64,000 nucleotides of DNA. Source: Clostridiales bacterium. GTDB lineage: Bacteria; Bacillota; Clostridia; Christensenellales; UBA1242. A program made the translations under genes and the position numbers. Positions 3,321 through 59,806 of the stretch are shown piece after piece. Under the pieces are notes generated by a model. It was not told the origin of the DNA. It made no database searches and worked only from the letters and a program-made list of their open reading frames with translations. The DNA lies in contig SVIA01000003.1 of the NCBI GenBank assembly GCA_015055535.1, positions 16,098 through 80,097 of the forward strand. The letters are read 5' to 3'. Position 1 is the first letter of the stretch, and each line of letters starts with the position of its first letter.

Positions 3321-5426
3321 ATGAAATTATTTATTATTGAAGGTAAAGGAAAAATTGAATCAATAAAAAAATATCTTGGTGGTGATTACCAAGTTTTTGC
3401 TACGGCTGGTCATGTTAGAGATTTACCAACAAAAAATTTAGGTGTTCAAATTACAAATAATTTTGAGCCTGTTTATGAAATAATGCCAGATAAGAAAAAT
3501 ATTGTTAATGATTTAGTTAAGCTTGCAAAAAAAGCAGAAACTATTTATATTGCAACCGACCCGGATAGAGAAGGAGAAGCGATTGCATATCATATTTCTT
3601 ATATTTTAAATATTAATCCTAATGAAAAAGTTAGGGTTGCTTTTAACTCTATTGATAAAGAAACAATTAATAAAGCATTACAAGAACCTAGAAATATTGA
3701 TTTAGATTTAGTTAATGCTCAACAAGCACGTAGAGTTTTAGATAGACTTGTTGGTTATAAAATTTCTCCAATAATTTGTAAAAAAATAAAACCAAATTTA
3801 AGTGCTGGGCGTGTTCAAAGTGCAGCTCTTAAAATGATTGTAGAAAGAGAAAAAGAAATTCAAAATTTTAAACCAGAAGAATACTGGAATTTAAATGTAG
3901 AACTAGAAAAAAATGGTGCTAAACCTAACTTTAAAGCATTACTTAATACAAAAAATAATGAAAAAATTAAGATTAATAATAACGATGAAATGCAAGAAGT
4001 TTTAAAAGAACTAGATAATAAGGATTTTGTTGTTACCAATGTTAAAAAAAGTGTTACAAAATCTAAACCAAAACCTCCTTTTACAACTTCAACAATGCAA
4101 CAAGATGCTGCAAATAAATTAAATTTTACACTTAAAAAGACTACACAAGTAGCACAAAATCTTTATGAGGGTATAGAAGTTAAAGGTGAAGGCAAGGTGG
4201 CTTTAGTTACATACATTCGTACTGACTCTACAAGGGTTAGTGAAGGCGCTATGATTAAAGCAAAAGAATATATTGTTAAAAATTTTGGTGAAGACTATGC
4301 TCCTAAAAAATTTAATATTTATAAAAGTAAAGATGCTGCACAAGATGCCCACGAAGCAATAAGACCAATTGATTTAAATAGAACGCCAGATAGTTTAAAA
4401 GATAAAATTGATAATGATTTATATAAGCTATATAAATTAATTTATAATAGATTTTTGGCAAGTCAAATGACTGAAGCACAATATAATTCCGTTAGTGTTG
4501 ATATATCTTGTGACAATTATGGTTTTAAAGTGAGTGGTAAAACTCCTAAATTTTTAGGTTATACAACTGTTTATGTAGATACTACTAAAGAAAACGAAGT
4601 TAAACTTCCAGTTTTAGAAAATGGTGATAAATTAAAATCAACAAACTTTTTACCAGAACAAAAATTTACAAAACCAGAACCTAGATACACTGAAGCAACT
4701 ATAGTTGATGCTATGGAAGCAAAGGGAATAGGTAGACCTGCAACTTATGCGGCAACTATTAATGTTTTACTTTCTAGATATTGTACAAAAGATGGAAAAA
4801 GTATTGTTCCGACTGAAACGGCTTTTCAAGTAATGGAATTTTTAGATAAAAATTTTGCTAAAACAATTAACATTAATTTTACAGCTCAAATGGAAACAGC
4901 ACTTGATGAAATTGCTGAAGGCAAACGAGAATGGCACGCTCTTATTAATGGATTTTACAATAAATTTATTCCACAACTTAAAAACGCTGGAGCAAGCGTT
5001 GTAGAAGCAAAAGTAACTGATGTTATTTGTGATAAATGTGGCGCTAATATGGTTGAAAGAGAGGGGAAATTTGGAAAATTCTTAGCATGTCCTAATTTTC
5101 CTAAATGTAAAAATATAAAAAATATCGAAAAAGAAAAACCTGTTGAAGTTATTACTGATATAGTTTGCGAAAAATGTGGCTGTAAAATGATAGAAAAACA
5201 AGGTAAATTCGGTAAGTTTTTAGGGTGTAGTAATTATCCTACTTGTAACAATATACAAAAGGTTTTACCTAAAAATATAGATCCAAATAAAGTTGTTGTT
5301 TGTGATAAATGTGGTGCTAATATGATTTTAAAACAAGGCAAATATGGTTATTTTTATGCTTGTCCTAATTACCCAACATGTCAAAACATAGTTAAAATAA
5401 CTAAGGAGAAAAATAGTGAAAGTTAA
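3321..5426 (+). CDS. topA: DNA topoisomerase I with three C-terminal C4 zinc ribbons
   Basis: TOPRIM N-terminus (IIEGKGK...DPDREGEAIAYH), catalytic-Tyr region (YIRTDSTR), three CDKCG...CPN(F/Y)PxC repeats. Confidence 0.96.
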   Translation: MKLFIIEGKGKIESIKKYLGGDYQVFATAGHVRDLPTKNLGVQITNNFEPVYEIMPDKKNIVNDLVKLAKKAETIYIATDPDREGEAIAYHISYILNINPNEKVRVAFNSIDKETINKALQEPRNIDLDLVNAQQARRVLDRLVGYKISPIICKKIKPNLSAGRVQSAALKMIVEREKEIQNFKPEEYWNLNVELEKNGAKPNFKALLNTKNNEKIKINNNDEMQEVLKELDNKDFVVTNVKKSVTKSKPKPPFTTSTMQQDAANKLNFTLKKTTQVAQNLYEGIEVKGEGKVALVTYIRTDSTRVSEGAMIKAKEYIVKNFGEDYAPKKFNIYKSKDAAQDAHEAIRPIDLNRTPDSLKDKIDNDLYKLYKLIYNRFLASQMTEAQYNSVSVDISCDNYGFKVSGKTPKFLGYTTVYVDTTKENEVKLPVLENGDKLKSTNFLPEQKFTKPEPRYTEATIVDAMEAKGIGRPATYAATINVLLSRYCTKDGKSIVPTETAFQVMEFLDKNFAKTININFTAQMETALDEIAEGKREWHALINGFYNKFIPQLKNAGASVVEAKVTDVICDKCGANMVEREGKFGKFLACPNFPKCKNIKNIEKEKPVEVITDIVCEKCGCKMIEKQGKFGKFLGCSNYPTCNNIQKVLPKNIDPNKVVVCDKCGANMILKQGKYGYFYACPNYPTCQNIVKITKEKNSES

Positions 5427-38997: not shown

Positions 38998-39026
38998 TTG
39001 CAAAAATATTGAAAATATGATATAAT
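38998..39026 (+). promoter_or_regulatory. Near-consensus sigma-A promoter driving the large ncRNA
   Basis: TTGCAA (38998-39003), exactly 17 nt, extended -10 TGaTATAAT (39018-39026). Predicted TSS ~39033-39035. Confidence 0.65.
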
Positions 39027-39033
39027 TAAAATG

Positions 39034-39545
39034 TTAGAGAAACTGTATCCTAGTCGCAAAAACTTTAATGAAAACGAATAATGGCGTTAGAGGGCATATC
39101 GATGAAGTTTCTGGTGTTTGCTTTGGTTGCCCAAATCGGGGTGGATGCTGGGAGTTAAGATTTTTGGGTGTGTTATAATGGCATATAATTTAAGCCCAAT
39201 TATCGTGGAGACCTAAAAGGTGGTATTTTTAATATATTACTAATTAGGATTAAACCTGCTATGTGGTGAATAAAAAGCTATGTACAGAGTAGCCTGTTTT
39301 GAGTGAATGGTGTGGATTATGTATGAAACAATGTTTGCAAAACAAACTAGTTAAATTATTTTTGTGTTAAGGAAAACTTCTAGGCAGAATATCTTTTGGG
39401 GATTATAGTGTAATCTAAGTGGCAATTCGGTATCAGTATTGGCGCAAGACTTAAACAGAAATGGCATATTCGGTGACGGTATGTGTTTTGTGGGGAAATC
39501 CGACCGAACCTAAGTTGCAAGGTTTACTCAAAAGATTTTCTCTAA
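39034..39545 (+). ncRNA. Large (~510 nt) structured non-coding RNA; candidate compact OLE (ornate, large, extremophilic) RNA
   Basis: No ORF in the supplied six-frame track on either strand. Visibly G+C-enriched relative to the flanks. Terminal helix TTAGAGAAA (39034-42) / TTTCTCTAA (39537-45) stacks on ATCTTTTG (39391-98) / CAAAAGAT (39529-36). Internal helices GGGCA (39092-96) / TGCCC (39128-32) and TTCGGT (39469-74) / ACCGAA (39503-08). Own promoter. Position nusB-xseA-xseB-[RNA]-small TM protein-...-argR-recN matches the published OLE/oapA context. Confidence is high that this is a structured RNA and lower that it is OLE. Confidence 0.65.
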
Positions 39546-39563
39546 TTTTTATTTAGGAGACGA

Positions 39564-56048: not shown

Positions 56049-56050
56049 CA

Positions 56051-56085
56051 AAAAAACACATTAGCTTTAACTAATGTGTTTTTTG
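56051..56085. terminator. Bidirectional terminator between convergent genes
   Basis: AACACATTAG-CTTTAA-CTAATGTGTT flanked by an A-run and a T-run. Confidence 0.75.
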
Positions 56086-56093
56086 TATTTAAA

Positions 56094-57311
56094 TTATAAT
56101 TTATAACCATTTTCTTCCAAAAGATTTTGTGCGCTTTCAACTGAGTCTACACCGGTTTTATTTTTAACAGGAGCAAATTCTTTTTTTCTTTCAACTTCAA
56201 AAGGTAAACAAGAATTACAATATTCTATCATATCTACACAAAGCATTTCAAATTTGTGTGCATTTGGCTCGCTAGGTTTTACTAAAACTCCATCATCATT
56301 TATATACTCTACTTTTTTCGTTACAATATGAACTGGTAATTTATTATCTTTAATTTTATATAAAGTATCTACATTAAATAGATAATTTAATACAACGCCA
56401 AAATTATATACTCTTTCTCCATTTTCATCGGTTTCTACTGCCATTTCATTGGTTAAATCTATATATTCAACAATTGAAGGCTTACCATTTTTATTACACA
56501 TTACACCAACTTTTTCAAAAGGATCTACTTTTCTAATAACTTTAGAGCTAACTTCAAAATTTCCATTAATAGTCGCGCCAACAAATATAGGATCAGCTAT
56601 TTTTTGTAGTACATTATCAACACTAAAAACATTTAACCATTTTATATTATATTTTTCAAGCATTTCTTTTGCTTCAATATTATTTAATAAAGAGTTAAAC
56701 CATCCACCATTTCCATTTGGAGAGGTAGCTATTCTATCTTTGCTTTCTAAAAGAATTTTTCCTTTTAAATCTACACAAGGAGCCATTTCTTGAACAAAGA
56801 ATTTAACAAAGTTTTTATCATAACCAAAATAGTTTTTTCCTTCCAAAAATTCGGTAGTTACTTTATGGTTTTTCTCGCTTGTCATAATAAAGAAAGGTAT
56901 ATATTTTCCGCATTTTTTAACAACATCTAAAAGATTTTCAAATAATCTTTGAAAAATAAACACATCTTTAGTTTTTCCAATATTATACATACCCTTAGGG
57001 TTATCAGAACCAAGTCTAGTACCCATTCCACCAGCAAGAAGTAATGTTCCAACTTCATAATTTTGTAAAGCTTTTATGCCAATTTCTTCATATTTTGATT
57101 TATTTTTTTCAATTTCATTAATAGTCATTGCTTTAATGGGAGTAATTTTGCCTTTATCAATAGTTTGATTATTTTTTAATTCATCAAGATAAGAAAAATC
57201 AAGTTCGTTAATTTGATTATATAATTTTTCTTTTTGTTCTTTTTTTAATTCATCTTCAAACTTTAATAATTGTTCTTGACTATACTTTTTAATTTTTTCT
57301 TTTACTTTCAT
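56094..57311 (-). CDS. UDPGP-family (UAP1-like, eukaryotic-type) UDP-sugar / UDP-GlcNAc pyrophosphorylase
   Basis: LLAGGMGTRLGSDNPKGM nucleotide-binding loop, SPNGNGG, 405 aa. Confidence 0.72.
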   Translation of the reverse strand: MKVKEKIKKYSQEQLLKFEDELKKEQKEKLYNQINELDFSYLDELKNNQTIDKGKITPIKAMTINEIEKNKSKYEEIGIKALQNYEVGTLLLAGGMGTRLGSDNPKGMYNIGKTKDVFIFQRLFENLLDVVKKCGKYIPFFIMTSEKNHKVTTEFLEGKNYFGYDKNFVKFFVQEMAPCVDLKGKILLESKDRIATSPNGNGGWFNSLLNNIEAKEMLEKYNIKWLNVFSVDNVLQKIADPIFVGATINGNFEVSSKVIRKVDPFEKVGVMCNKNGKPSIVEYIDLTNEMAVETDENGERVYNFGVVLNYLFNVDTLYKIKDNKLPVHIVTKKVEYINDDGVLVKPSEPNAHKFEMLCVDMIEYCNSCLPFEVERKKEFAPVKNKTGVDSVESAQNLLEENGYKL

Positions 57312-57376
57312 ATTTTTCTCCTAATTTTTTATAACATAATAATAAATAATGTGAATTTTTTTATTTAAATTTTAAT

Positions 57377-57826
57377 TTATATTTTTTTAAATAAATAAGC
57401 ACTCCAAAAATTCATATTTAATTTTTCTATATAAAAAGATAATAATTTTTGATAATCTTTAGAAACTGCGTTTAGTTGTATTGTTTTACAACCCTTTTCT
57501 TTTGCATAATTTTCAGCAAATTCAAAAAGTTTTTGTCCGATATTTAAATTTCTATATTCAGGAATTACAAAAATCTCTTCTAAACTATAGAATTTATCAT
57601 CTTTATTAGAAAAAGCACGTTTTTTTGTTTCTATATTTATTTCGCCATAACAATATCCTATTATTTTGTTATTTAACAAGGCTATAATAATATTTTTATT
57701 TTCAAAATGTTCTTTGTTATCAGCTACAATACCATTGCAAGAACCCTCTTCAAAAAACAATTGGCTAAGTTTTGCTAATTCTTCACTGTCGCTTTTTTTG
57801 GCAAATTTAATTTTTATTTTATTCAT
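57377..57826 (-). CDS. GNAT-family N-acetyltransferase
   Basis: 149 aa, acetyl-CoA motif region VIPEYRNLNIGQKLFEFAENYAKEKG. Confidence 0.8.
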   Translation of the reverse strand: MNKIKIKFAKKSDSEELAKLSQLFFEEGSCNGIVADNKEHFENKNIIIALLNNKIIGYCYGEINIETKKRAFSNKDDKFYSLEEIFVIPEYRNLNIGQKLFEFAENYAKEKGCKTIQLNAVSKDYQKLLSFYIEKLNMNFWSAYLFKKI

Positions 57827-57880
57827 ATTTTTATATTAACATATTTTTTAATAAAAGTAAATTTAATTTATATTTAAAAT

Positions 57881-57907
57881 AAAAAACAGCCTAAAACGGC
57901 TGTTTTA
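57881..57907 (-). terminator. Terminator copy 2 (identical to 58012-58038)
   Basis: On the minus strand, AAAACAGCC-GTTTTA-GGCTGTTTT followed by a T-run. The 27 nt are identical to the tRNA-Trp terminator. Confidence 0.75.
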
Positions 57908-57912
57908 CCTAA

Positions 57913-58011
57913 AGGCGAAGTAGGATTTATTCACGAACCCGCGAATTGTCGTGGGTATGCAATGGCATGCATAATTGCGAAGCAATATCGAGTCCAACAA
58001 GGCCAAGTATT
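57913..58011 (-). pseudogene. tRNA-Trp 3'-end-derived element (element C): three abutting hairpins, a degenerate T-arm and an acceptor 3' strand, no CCA
   Basis: The minus strand ends ...TCGCGGGTTCGTGAATAAATCCTACTTCGCCT-TTAGG. The last 13 nt are identical to the tRNA-Trp 3' end (58045-57). Hairpins at 57937-56, 57956-73 (TATGCA-N6-TGCATA) and 57974-86. Confidence 0.6.
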
Positions 58012-58038
58012 AAAAAACAGCCTAAAACGGCTGTTTTA
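58012..58038 (-). terminator. Rho-independent terminator after tRNA-Trp
   Basis: Same hairpin as 57881-57907. Confidence 0.8.
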
Positions 58039-58040
58039 CT

Positions 58041-58116
58041 TGGCAGGCGAAGTAGGACTCGAACCCACGACCAACGGTTTTGGAGACCGCGACTCTACCA
58101 ACTGAGCTATTCGCCT
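58041..58116 (-). tRNA. trnW: tRNA-Trp (anticodon CCA), CCA end encoded
   Basis: Minus strand AGGCGAA-TA-GCTC-AGTTGGTA-GAGT-C-GCGGT-CTCCAAA-ACCGT-TGGTC-GTGGG-TTCGAGT-CCTAC-TTCGCCT-G-CCA folds by hand as a 76-nt cloverleaf. Confidence 0.9.
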
Positions 58117-58142
58117 TTATTTTAATTATCAATTTTAATTTT

Positions 58143-58293
58143 GCTCAGTTAGTAGACCCAAGGTCTTCCTCTTGTTTTAATGTCGCATTGCGTCAAAACA
58201 AGTTTTCCTAATGCTCGTTAAAGCAAGAACTTTCGTGTTCGCTTATTCGTCCACAGGACGTGCTCCACTTTGTTCCAACTGAGCTATTCGCCT
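58143..58293 (-). ncRNA. tRNA-Trp 5'-end-derived structured element (element A), ~150 nt, co-transcribed upstream of tRNA-Trp
   Basis: Starts with 19 nt identical to the tRNA-Trp 5' end (24 nt including the AATAA flank). Closing helix GCTCAGTT / AACTGAGC (58277-84 / 58143-50) encloses hairpins at 58248-60, 58171-202 and 58154-66. Confidence 0.5.
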
Positions 58294-58316
58294 TTATTAA
58301 AAATAAAAACATATTA

Positions 58317-58345
58317 ATTATATTTAAATTTATTTATTTTGTCAA
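58317..58345 (-). promoter_or_regulatory. Consensus sigma-A promoter for element A + tRNA-Trp
   Basis: Minus strand TTGACA (58345-40), 17 nt, TATAAT (58322-17). A second TTGACA lies 13 nt upstream (58358-53). Confidence 0.65.
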
Positions 58346-58446
58346 GTAATTGTGTCAAATAAATTTATTTATATAAAGTTTATAAAATATATATCGTGAA
58401 TGGTTTATAATTTGGTTTTTAGTAAATACTAAGTTTGGAGGATATT

Positions 58447-58662
58447 ATGAAAAAAGAAATAACAACTAAAGACATAATGGCTTTAAACGAATTAATGACA
58501 TTTGAAAACTGGATTGCAACTAAAATGTATATGTTTTATGAAAATGAAACAGATAGAAGTTTAAAGAATATGTTTAAAGAAATGGCAGTAAAACATTTAG
58601 ATAGCCATACAAAATTATTGAATTATTTAGAAACTAATGCTAAAGAAGGGGGTAAAAAATAA
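58447..58662 (+). CDS. Small helical protein, spore coat F-like partner
   Basis: ATG 58447 after GGAGGA, ~71 aa, overlaps the start of the downstream Coat F-like gene. Confidence 0.45.
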   Translation: MKKEITTKDIMALNELMTFENWIATKMYMFYENETDRSLKNMFKEMAVKHLDSHTKLLNYLETNAKEGGKK

Positions 58663-59011: not shown

Positions 59012-59806
59012 TTATATAACAGGCTTATGCATTTTTATTTCATCGGTTGCAAGTTTGTCGCAAAGGTTATTATAGTAATTATCGGTATGTCCTTTTACTT
59101 TAACCCAGTTTACTGTTTTGTGTAAAGATATTAAATCTATAAGTTCTAACCAAAATTCTTTATTGGCAACCTCTTTTTTTTGTGAGTTTTTAAAGCCGTT
59201 TAATTGCCAAGTATTAATCCATCCTTGAGTGAAAGCACTATGAACATATGCACTATCAGTATAAATTGTAAGACAACAAGGTTTTTTAATAGCTTTTATC
59301 CCCTCTATTACAGCTGTTAATTCCATTTGATTGTTTGTTGTACTTTCATTATAACCACTCATTTCTTTATATTTTTCTTTTTCTTTACATAATAATACAT
59401 ACCCCCAACCGCCAGGACCAGGATTTCCACTGCAAGCTCCATCAGTATATAAGTCTATATTTAAAAATTCAGACATTAAAGTGATTTTTATTGCTAAAAC
59501 ACCATATTTTTCTTGTTCTGCTTGGTTGTAATATTTTTCCATATCTAATGGGTCAGCGCTTTCATTTTCTTTATAACCAAGTTCAATTTTATTAAAACTT
59601 TCATAAAGTTTTTTAAAACTATCAAATTTTATTAAATCTACAACTTTTACAAATATACGTTCGTTAGTTGTACGATTTATAAATATAATACTATCATTAA
59701 CTTTAATTAATTGTCTTTTTTCATCAAAAAGGCGCATTTCAACAGTTTTAATTCCATTTTTAATGCTTATAAATGGATCATTATTTAATCTTAATATATG
59801 TATCAT
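59012..59806 (-). CDS. rnhA: ASCH domain - RNase HI fusion protein
   Basis: N-terminal ~105 aa has an ASCH pattern (KTVEMRLFDEKRQLIKVND...YGVLAIKI). The C-terminus is RNase HI (YTDGACSGNPGPGGWG, NNQMELTA, IYTDSAY, GHTDN..N..CDKLA). Confidence 0.8.
   Translation of the reverse strand: MIHILRLNNDPFISIKNGIKTVEMRLFDEKRQLIKVNDSIIFINRTTNERIFVKVVDLIKFDSFKKLYESFNKIELGYKENESADPLDMEKYYNQAEQEKYGVLAIKITLMSEFLNIDLYTDGACSGNPGPGGWGYVLLCKEKEKYKEMSGYNESTTNNQMELTAVIEGIKAIKKPCCLTIYTDSAYVHSAFTQGWINTWQLNGFKNSQKKEVANKEFWLELIDLISLHKTVNWVKVKGHTDNYYNNLCDKLATDEIKMHKPVI

Follow-up and report, generated by a model that had tools for sequence, protein, structure and literature searches.

In the Escherichia coli tyrT operon, a unit of 178 bp recurs about 3.14-fold, each repeat beginning with the last 19 nucleotides (nt) of tRNA-Tyr, and 3'ETS-leuZ, also from E. 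coli, is an RNA derived from the spacer of a tRNA operon. The intron of archaeal pre-tRNA-Trp encodes a box C/D guide RNA that comes with a methylation machinery, a system that bacteria do not have. The repeats of the tyrT operon are located 3' of the tRNA gene and one of them gives the RtT (rttR) RNA, as summarised in PMC3318445 (citing Bösl & Kersten 1991). Integrating phages, integrative and conjugative elements and genomic islands leave partial tRNA genes at attL and attR, as outlined in PMC9897764 (Williams 2002 cited there), and in a synthetic RNase P riboswitch the structure of the 5' leader of a pre-tRNA governs its maturation by RNase P (PMC7897497). Here we describe a tRNA-Trp locus in a 64-kb stretch of contig SVIA01000003.1 from a Clostridiales bacterium (the window), in which an intact tRNA-Trp(CCA) gene is flanked by a structured element A on its 5' side and a structured element C on its 3' side. 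With slightly better than even confidence, we consider the locus to be one tRNA-Trp unit with two accessory modules, which were partly copied from the gene's own ends. The best reading is that A is a selected, co-transcribed leader RNA, to which we assign no role, and C an amplifiable trailer with a spare terminator. A and C represent two undescribed, lineage-restricted families attached to tRNA-Trp, named A1 and C1, for which no described equivalent was found in the literature; both modules are dispensable, and a specific regulatory function is possible.

Relatives of the locus were collected by scanning species-representative genomes for the first 19 nt of the tRNA, which returned 27 loci, and orthologous loci were retrieved via the neighbouring CotF'-like gene (single loci are denoted by L and a number). 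A covariance model of A1, for which the sequences of the window and L127 were combined with a structure derived by hand, led to one match each in L128, L021 and L025 with E values from 1e-15 to 1e-38, all of them immediately 5' of tRNA-Trp, and to no further copy in the 251 kb searched, which comprised related loci as well as the remainder of the window; a model of all five sequences reproduced this result. A1 is accordingly described here as a predicted five-helix RNA domain located between promoter and tRNA-Trp in five uncultured Christensenellales species, with a core of 142 nt, in which helices P2 to P5 are conserved in all five and the closing helix P1, formed by a tRNA-like head and an antisense tail, is present only in the window, L127 and L128. 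In the alignment 94% of the cells were paired, compared to 34-42% when the partners were slid, and compensatory changes were detected in 12 of 35 pairs, compared to 4.0±1.5 in shuffles (0 of 500 shuffles reached 12). These changes are located in P2 (3 of 5 pairs), P3 and P4, and the core of P5 is invariant across the five species save for a C/U exchange in one outer pair that stays paired (G-C to G-U). An independent hand alignment agreed with the model-fitted result. All G·U pairs of P2, P4 and P5 were found on the tRNA-sense strand, which favours selection on the transcript over selection on DNA hairpins, and from this pattern A1 appears to be maintained by selection on RNA pairing. Furthermore, a good promoter precedes the module at every A1 locus and no second one separates it from the tRNA, so that A should be transcribed as part of the pre-tRNA leader. 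In the window, a single promoter-like site was detected upstream of A and the tRNA (minus strand, 57700-58500), orthologous to the promoters directly 5' of tRNA-Trp in L125 or of A1 in L127 and L128.

The C1 model was built without the window, from L014, L030 and L035, and matched the C element of the window once (51 bits), with three further matches in L021, two each in L014 and L030 and one in L035. C1 is therefore known in five species and follows the terminator of the tRNA. Its hairpins H1 and H2 were 100% paired with seven compensatory pairs, compared to 1.6±1.0 in shuffles; A1 as well as H1 and H2 of C1 thus show the conserved pairing of structured non-coding RNAs, judged from few sequences and model-fitted alignments. 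All C1 units share one layout, consisting of a CCCAC..GTGGG hairpin, a T arm, the acceptor 3' strand and a copy of the species' own terminator, and the T-arm loop is enlarged by 6 nt exactly at the would-be A58-G59. Some units retain an intact CCA end; in others it is mutated, among them those of the window, L030 and L035 and the distal unit of L014. Copy number ranges from one degenerate unit in L035 via two in L014 and L030 to more than three in L021, and each array stops mid-unit. Both modules also differ in composition from their surroundings, with a G+C content of 44-45% for A and C of the window (window average 25.7%) and of 44-47% across A1 (genome about 26%).

Comparison with L125 revealed the form of both modules. 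A is a 177-nt insertion flanked by a 24-nt direct repeat (AATAA and tRNA nt 1-19) and C a 131-nt insertion flanked by one of about 47 nt (tRNA nt 61-76 and the terminator), with L125 representing the empty form as known for att sites; in L021 the repeat bounding A extends to 72 nt (53 nt of leader and the 19-mer). Tandem or Campbell-type events would be expected to leave modules of this form. The flanking direct repeats would make loss and amplification by recombination or slippage easy, which would explain the patchy distribution with variable copy number. On both sides of the gene, tRNA segments run sense-antisense-sense, and the presence of sense and antisense segments in A and C points to local duplication and inversion, suggesting an origin at the D-arm and T-arm palindromes of the gene.

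The features of the locus, all of them on the minus strand, are compiled in the table. An earlier note on this DNA, made from the sequence alone, had listed promoter, A, spacer, intact tRNA, terminators and C, and every item was found again. Its duplicated terminator is real with an identity of 29 nt instead of the 27 nt given there, and its segment of C with perfect complementarity to the tRNA, ACCCACGA (57956-57949) to TCGTGGGT in the variable/T-stem region, proved to be an exact complement. The statement that the locus reflects neither a simple tandem duplication nor a simple integration at the 3' end gained support, with repeat periods of 177 and 131 nt.

Features of the tRNA-Trp locus in the window (nt, position in the tRNA or in the window)
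Feature	Position	Strand	Remarks
Sigma-70-type promoter TTGACA-17-TATAAT	58345-58317	minus	12/12 matches
Head of A: AATAA and copy of tRNA-Trp nt 1-19	58298-58275	minus	24-nt direct repeat, upstream copy
Element A (A1 member)	58293-58143	minus	covariance-model match 58284-58143, 165-178 bits
P1, closing helix of A: GCTCAGTT / AACTGAGC	58284-58277 with 58150-58143	minus	
A1 helix P2 (CGTCC-TGT-GGACG)	58260-58248	minus	paired in 5/5 species
A1 helix P3	58227-58218 with 58180-58171	minus	compensatory changes in 6/10 pairs
A1 helix P4	58214-58210 with 58189-58185	minus	compensatory changes in 3/5 pairs
A1 helix P5 (GGAAGACC-TTG-GGTCTACT) and tail AACTGAGC	58169-58143	minus	together antisense to tRNA nt 10-35
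A+T spacer, 26 nt	58142-58117	minus	TTGATAAT..AA aligns with L125 leader
Intact tRNA-Trp(CCA)	58116-58041	minus	ARAGORN; Rfam 64.4 bits
Terminator 1 (hairpin AAAACAGCC-GTTTTA-GGCTGTTTT and T run)	58039-58011	minus	upstream copy of repeat bounding C
Element C (C1 member)	58010-57909	minus	51.4 bits, E ~1e-10, model from other species only
C antisense piece GGACTCGA	57995-57988	minus	antisense of tRNA T loop and T stem
C hairpin H1	57986-57974	minus	
C hairpin H2	57972-57957	minus	
C hairpin H3	57955-57938	minus	
C T arm (loop enlarged by 6 nt) and acceptor 3' strand	57942-57913	minus	
Terminator 2	57908-57880	minus	29/29 nt identical to terminator 1

The tRNA-Trp is the sole tRNA that ARAGORN detected in the window and the only functional tRNA at the locus, and the A+T spacer in front of it is, from its alignment, apparently the tRNA's original short leader. 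The 24-nt repeat that starts A occurs exactly twice in the 64 kb (58298-58275 and 58121-58098; start-to-start spacing 177; 0 expected by chance from 100 shuffles). Folded alone, A reached -45 kcal/mol (z = -4.1). P3 and P4 (together 58227-58171) are linked via a GA-rich internal loop, their apical loop contains CTTGTTTT, a copy of the 5' strand of P3, and the tail AACTGAGC also pairs with the head, thereby closing A through P1. The final 24 nt of A are antisense to tRNA nt 10-33 at 19 of 24 positions, a score equalled by one of 400 shuffles. The three hairpins of C abut one another, 13 nt of C (57925-57913) are identical to the 3' strand of the tRNA, and the end reads TTTAGG where the tRNA has GCCAAG. 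The terminator copies are spaced by 131 nt (0 expected by chance), and the flank past terminator 2 is orthologous to the flank past the single terminator of L125. Both copies show the G+C-containing hairpin and T run of intrinsic terminators; the scan flagged copy 2 only, since part of the T run of the identical copy 1 was counted as stem. That the C body is a diverged copy of the tRNA, either of its 5' half in sense or of its 3' half in antisense orientation, was discarded because the C1 alignment scores were not significant, and of the matches between C and the tRNA only the short GGACTCGA and CCCACGAC stand.

Two observations on these parts may be added. Twin TTGACA boxes, 7 nt apart, are located 5' of the -10 element (58358-58340, minus strand), and this double box is retained in L128, with altered versions in L125 and L127. 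The P4 loop of A1 (58209-58190 in the window, also in L127 and L128) carries CTTGTTT(T), the copy of the P3 5' strand, which could pair with AAAACAAG and does so in the single-sequence minimum-energy fold; the P4 loop of L021 has GGCAAGA instead, which is complementary to the 5' strand of P3. From these computed pairings, an alternative conformation of A1 may exist.

About 20 of the 27 loci originate from uncultured Clostridia/Christensenellales whose tRNA-Trp is identical or nearly so (L018 has one substitution), and most of these relatives have a plain gene of promoter, tRNA and terminator. L021 and L025 carry an A-like element, a second copy of the 19-mer being located 188-189 nt upstream, and L018 and L024 carry a different 'type 2' leader and trailer at tRNA-Trp. 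At the orthologous locus, A of L127 (CotF' 88% identical) is about 95% identical to that of the window, and in L128, L129 and L130 (CotF' 79%) A is present and C absent. L125 (amino-acid identity to the window 92% for CotF' and 88% for UDPGP) has the orthologous promoter followed by 14 nt, the plain tRNA-Trp and one terminator, and no tRNA was found at the orthologous site in L119, L120 and L126. Among the relatives in which this site carries the gene L125 is the closest, so that both modules are non-essential. Three species share one A1 locus, and the A1 copies of the remaining two reside at two further loci; as the shared locus includes the more distant L128 besides the window and L127, the plain state of L125 would most simply be a secondary loss. 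A and C are independent of each other, with A only in L128 and C only in L014 and L035, and the head is degenerate in L127 and decayed also in L024. Synteny around UDPGP gave little as a route to further relatives since it is not conserved.

We propose that A would be transcribed within the pre-tRNA leader and removed when RNase P cleaves at tRNA +1. A would fold on itself during synthesis, with P5 and P1 masking the segments that are able to pair with the tRNA, and would then either be released as a stable by-product or act in cis on the folding of the pre-tRNA. C, located behind the first terminator, would chiefly reinforce termination, with each C1 unit bringing another terminator.

Whether A interferes with the tRNA was addressed by folding of the whole precursor. 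In the minimum-energy fold the tail of A pairs with the D arm and anticodon stem of the tRNA, and the AGGCGAA of A with the 3' acceptor strand, as the earlier note had anticipated for the latter. Scrambling of the tail restored the cloverleaf, which was not the case for the head. In the window the cloverleaf was disfavoured by 11.6 kcal/mol and in L128 by 13.6 kcal/mol, values that 0 of 24 shuffled-A leaders reached in either case, and by 7.6 kcal/mol in L021 and 4.4 kcal/mol in L025, which were reached by 7 and 3 of 24 shuffled leaders, respectively. These controls rule out a 'brake' on the cloverleaf as a family-wide property of A1, and since the effect is exceptional in the window and L128 only, a maturation switch is speculative. 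The competition of A with tRNA pairing is thus computationally real in the window genome and not conserved in the family, as far as such folds predict. In folds of the leader alone, the tail was paired within P5 and, for the window, within P1 as well, and ordered co-transcriptional folding would probably keep it harmless.

Searches for known families and mobile elements were largely negative. Neither ARAGORN nor Rfam (up to E 10) called a tRNA-like gene or cloverleaf (RF00005) in A or C, and Rfam (gathering thresholds and E up to 10) gave for A and C, and likewise for eight related loci, only the tRNA and weak chance matches to unrelated families; a clean match to a known RNA family, with which the earlier note had reckoned, was thus not found. 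Curated models of riboswitches, T-boxes and other cis-regulatory leaders did not match A or C either. In blastn against phages and plasmids only the tRNA portion matched. Scans of viral contigs returned nothing for the 5' 19-mer of tRNA-Trp or the C motif and two chance matches for the type-2 hairpin motif; TAGCTCAGTTGGAAC was too generic as a query. A metagenome scan with the A1 tail motif led to one chance match inside a coding region, the collection evidently being without these organisms. No integrase or transposase adjoined any locus examined, the neighbours being dacB-like, hisS, recN, trpS, an AAA ATPase and unknown genes. There is a single copy in the window and in the 251 kb of related loci, and the repeats flanking the modules consist of 24-72 nt of tRNA and flank, unlike the short target-site duplications of insertion sequences or miniature inverted-repeat transposable elements. 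Box C/D, boxA-like motifs, a CsrA-type GGA sponge, TRAP-type triplets and a small open reading frame (ORF) in the repeats were considered by eye and rejected for want of motif conservation among the five species.

The type-2 modules behave differently. The tRNA-Trp leader of L018 and L024 shows homology to the trailer of the same genome in reverse complement (z about 6.5), and a much stronger one to a reverse-complemented unit 3' of tRNA-Leu(AAG) in L013 (z = 23). This L013 unit (3449-3590) begins with an antisense copy of the tRNA-Leu T arm and ends with the tRNA-Leu's own 3' end and terminator. The type-2 body comprises about 100 nt, is found in opposite orientations up- and downstream of tRNA-Trp with ends copied from the local tRNA, and includes a bidirectional terminator-like hairpin, AAGTTGCCAGTGGCAAGTT. 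A reverse-complement relation between A and C holds for type 2 only and was rejected for the window (A1 vs C1, z -0.1 to 1.5), and the type-2 leaders (A2) are not members of A1, with at most 4.8 bits when filters were off.

Several explanations compete with the reading of A as a selected leader RNA and of C as an amplifiable trailer. The modules might be functionless, decaying partial duplications of the tRNA that persist by chance and gene conversion with the tRNA, which we regard as unlikely. Their absence from L125 and many species with the same tRNA, their position between direct repeats, arrays that stop mid-unit, the decayed heads and the lost CCA ends are all compatible with such scars; yet P2 to P4 of A1 and H1 and H2 of C1 stay paired despite sequence turnover, the G·U pairs of conserved helices are confined to the transcribed strand, a G+C content of 44-47% is kept within a genome of about 26%, and A1 occupies one common locus in three species, with two further loci in the remaining two. 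The comparison of orthologous loci proposed in the earlier note cut both ways, as L125 is without A and C and each of them was kept in four other species, A with compensatory changes; the modules are thus dispensable, but not the mere decaying scars that the note had considered. Quite unlikely, in our estimate, are footprints of small mobile elements that recombined with the tRNA ends, site-specifically or in Campbell fashion, and left att-like direct repeats. That the units have the form of insertions between repeats of a tRNA end would fit, as would a locus that is a hot spot of presence and absence, the type-2 body common to tRNA-Trp leaders, their reverse-complemented trailers and the L013 tRNA-Leu(AAG) trailer (z up to 23), and the tRNA gene fragments that integrating elements commonly leave (PMC9897764). 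Such elements would, however, have left no integrase or transposase beside any examined locus and no similarity to phages, plasmids or viral contigs beyond the tRNA itself, in units of merely 130-190 bp; moreover, A1 occurs as one copy per locus, always at tRNA-Trp, and A1 of the window has no detectable relation to the reverse complement of C1.

A switch in cis, in which the masked tail and the head of A trap the nascent tRNA in a non-cloverleaf fold and thereby divert or delay RNase P, appears highly unlikely. The minimum-energy folds of the precursor and the energies in the window and L128 are what it would demand, together with the restoration of the cloverleaf upon tail scrambling, a P5 core that is invariant while other helices covary, and the control of RNase P cleavage by leader structure in a synthetic device (PMC7897497), but the effect is unexceptional against shuffled leaders in L021 and L025, both of which are without P1, the head is degenerate in L127, and no ligand or signal is evident; in addition, equilibrium folding ignores the co-transcriptional order and the tertiary structure and modification of the tRNA. 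A regulator of tRNA-Trp maturation, as put forward in the earlier note, is hence possible and at the same time weakened, with an effect beyond shuffled leaders in the window and L128 but not in L021 and L025. We give hardly any credence to an independent gene pair for tRNA-mimicking small RNAs, or to a split or nested tRNA whose outer acceptor stem is built from the head of A and the tail of C. The AGGCGAA of the A head is indeed complementary to the 3' end TTCGCCT of C and both elements are structured, but no tRNA-like gene was called in either and there is no anticodon arm. A has neither a promoter of its own nor a terminator, C lies behind a terminator and has no promoter, neither forms an acceptor stem alone, each occurs without the other in relatives (A only in L128, C only in L014 and L035), and the copies of C range from 0 to more than three, which also makes the small-RNA pair of the earlier note unlikely. 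Bolder still, and decidedly unlikely in our judgement, A1 could be a natural RNA device gating the maturation of an essential single-copy tRNA, or the type-2 units a new kind of tiny mobile DNA. In the former case, as modelled, the masked antisense tail (to tRNA nt 10-35, in P5 and P1) and the acceptor-copy head may decide on whether a cloverleaf processable by RNase P is formed; in the latter, the units may be mobile DNA of 130-200 bp, anchored at tRNA ends and moving between tRNA genes in either orientation.

Several points weigh against a selected leader RNA and an amplifiable trailer as well. Transcription and processing of A are deduced from sequence alone, and the origin by duplication and inversion is deduced likewise and unproven. 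Only five A1 sequences contributed to the covariation, two of them about 95% alike, and the alignment used for counting pairs was fitted to the model; the covariation of C1 mostly separates the lineage of the window from the rest. In the single-sequence minimum-energy fold of the window A, the 3' strand of P3 takes an alternative partner. The antisense matches in C1 comprise 8-10 nt and are not individually significant. A and C are absent from L125 and about 12 other species with the identical tRNA, so that any function must be accessory, and the type-2 body, which from its distribution behaves like dispersed DNA, is not accounted for.

Further observations concern the surroundings. The region of the window from an ABC-transporter permease to the CotF'-like gene (about 56050-58435) is a presence/absence hot spot in comparison with L125, L126, L128, L119 and L003, and UDPGP, GNAT, the tRNA-Trp unit and small unknown ORFs vary among close relatives. 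In five relatives, L011 (2946-3100), L012, L020, L027 and L029, trpS follows tRNA-Trp with only a terminator hairpin and a ribosome-binding site in between, and thus read-through from the cognate tRNA gene seems to provide for expression of the synthetase, as far as gene order indicates. In L013 (3312-3720), trpS follows tRNA-Leu(AAG) and the type-2 unit instead. L034 and L037 stem from one metagenome-assembled genome (CATZIR01), in which tRNA-Trp is present twice, on separate contigs and behind differing promoters. The Logan contigs L127 and L129 end at the identical base within tRNA-Trp, which suggests a branch of the assembly graph at this position. Elsewhere in the window, a full-length OLE (ornate large extremophilic) RNA was detected at 39021-39558 (plus strand; Rfam 309 bits), and one ORF of 264 amino acids (59012-59806, minus strand) is a fusion of an ASCH with an RNase HI domain, which corresponds to two adjacent genes in L119 and L127.

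The locus shows that both flanks of a tRNA gene can give rise to such modules, that these can comprise antisense copies able to disturb the folding of an essential tRNA, and that quick gain, loss and amplification via direct repeats are possible. Partial tRNA copies of this kind break short-read assemblies and can mislead tRNA annotation. If A1 alters pre-tRNA folding or gives an abundant small RNA, it would add a new layer of control over a single-copy tRNA in uncultured gut Clostridia of a major group.

Compared with the described systems, the inserts at this locus resemble attL and attR in that a direct repeat of a tRNA end flanks inserted DNA beside an intact tRNA. They differ in comprising only 85-130 bp of non-coding DNA with no recombinase nearby, in the duplication of the 5' end as well, in repeats that extend into leader or terminator, and in bodies that are conserved, structured and G+C-rich. 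With the archaeal pre-tRNA-Trp intron A shares an embedded RNA element complementary to tRNA-Trp itself, but A1 has no conserved C/D boxes, and CUGA is found only in the window-type tail. Spacer-derived RNAs and the synthetic riboswitch come nearest to A as concepts. As for 3'ETS-leuZ, the nucleases of tRNA processing would free a non-tRNA segment of the precursor, which could itself be functional; A1, however, forms a domain of about 140 nt in the 5' leader and has four or five helices, its release is predicted, and no target or partner is known. Head and tail of A are predicted to be able to act in the window and L128 like the leader of the synthetic RNase P riboswitch, an engineered device under ligand control, whereas A has no known ligand and the effect is not conserved in A1; if true, a gating A1 would be the first natural counterpart of this device. 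The tyrT operon, the closest precedent for C, is resembled by the C1 units, which carry the tRNA 3' end in fractional copy number in arrays that stop mid-unit, the window having one such unit with 13 and 29 identical nt. In contrast to tyrT, neither A nor C matches the curated Rfam model of RtT in sequence or structure (E up to 10), the C1 unit also bears an intrinsic terminator and an antisense tRNA piece, and the window has a second, distinct module at the 5' side, in a Clostridia lineage and not an enterobacterium. A1, an RNA domain supported by covariation, and the trailer repeats of C1 are thereby added to the few tRNA operons with extra RNA from the ends of their own gene, for which tyrT/RtT of E. 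coli is the classic example.

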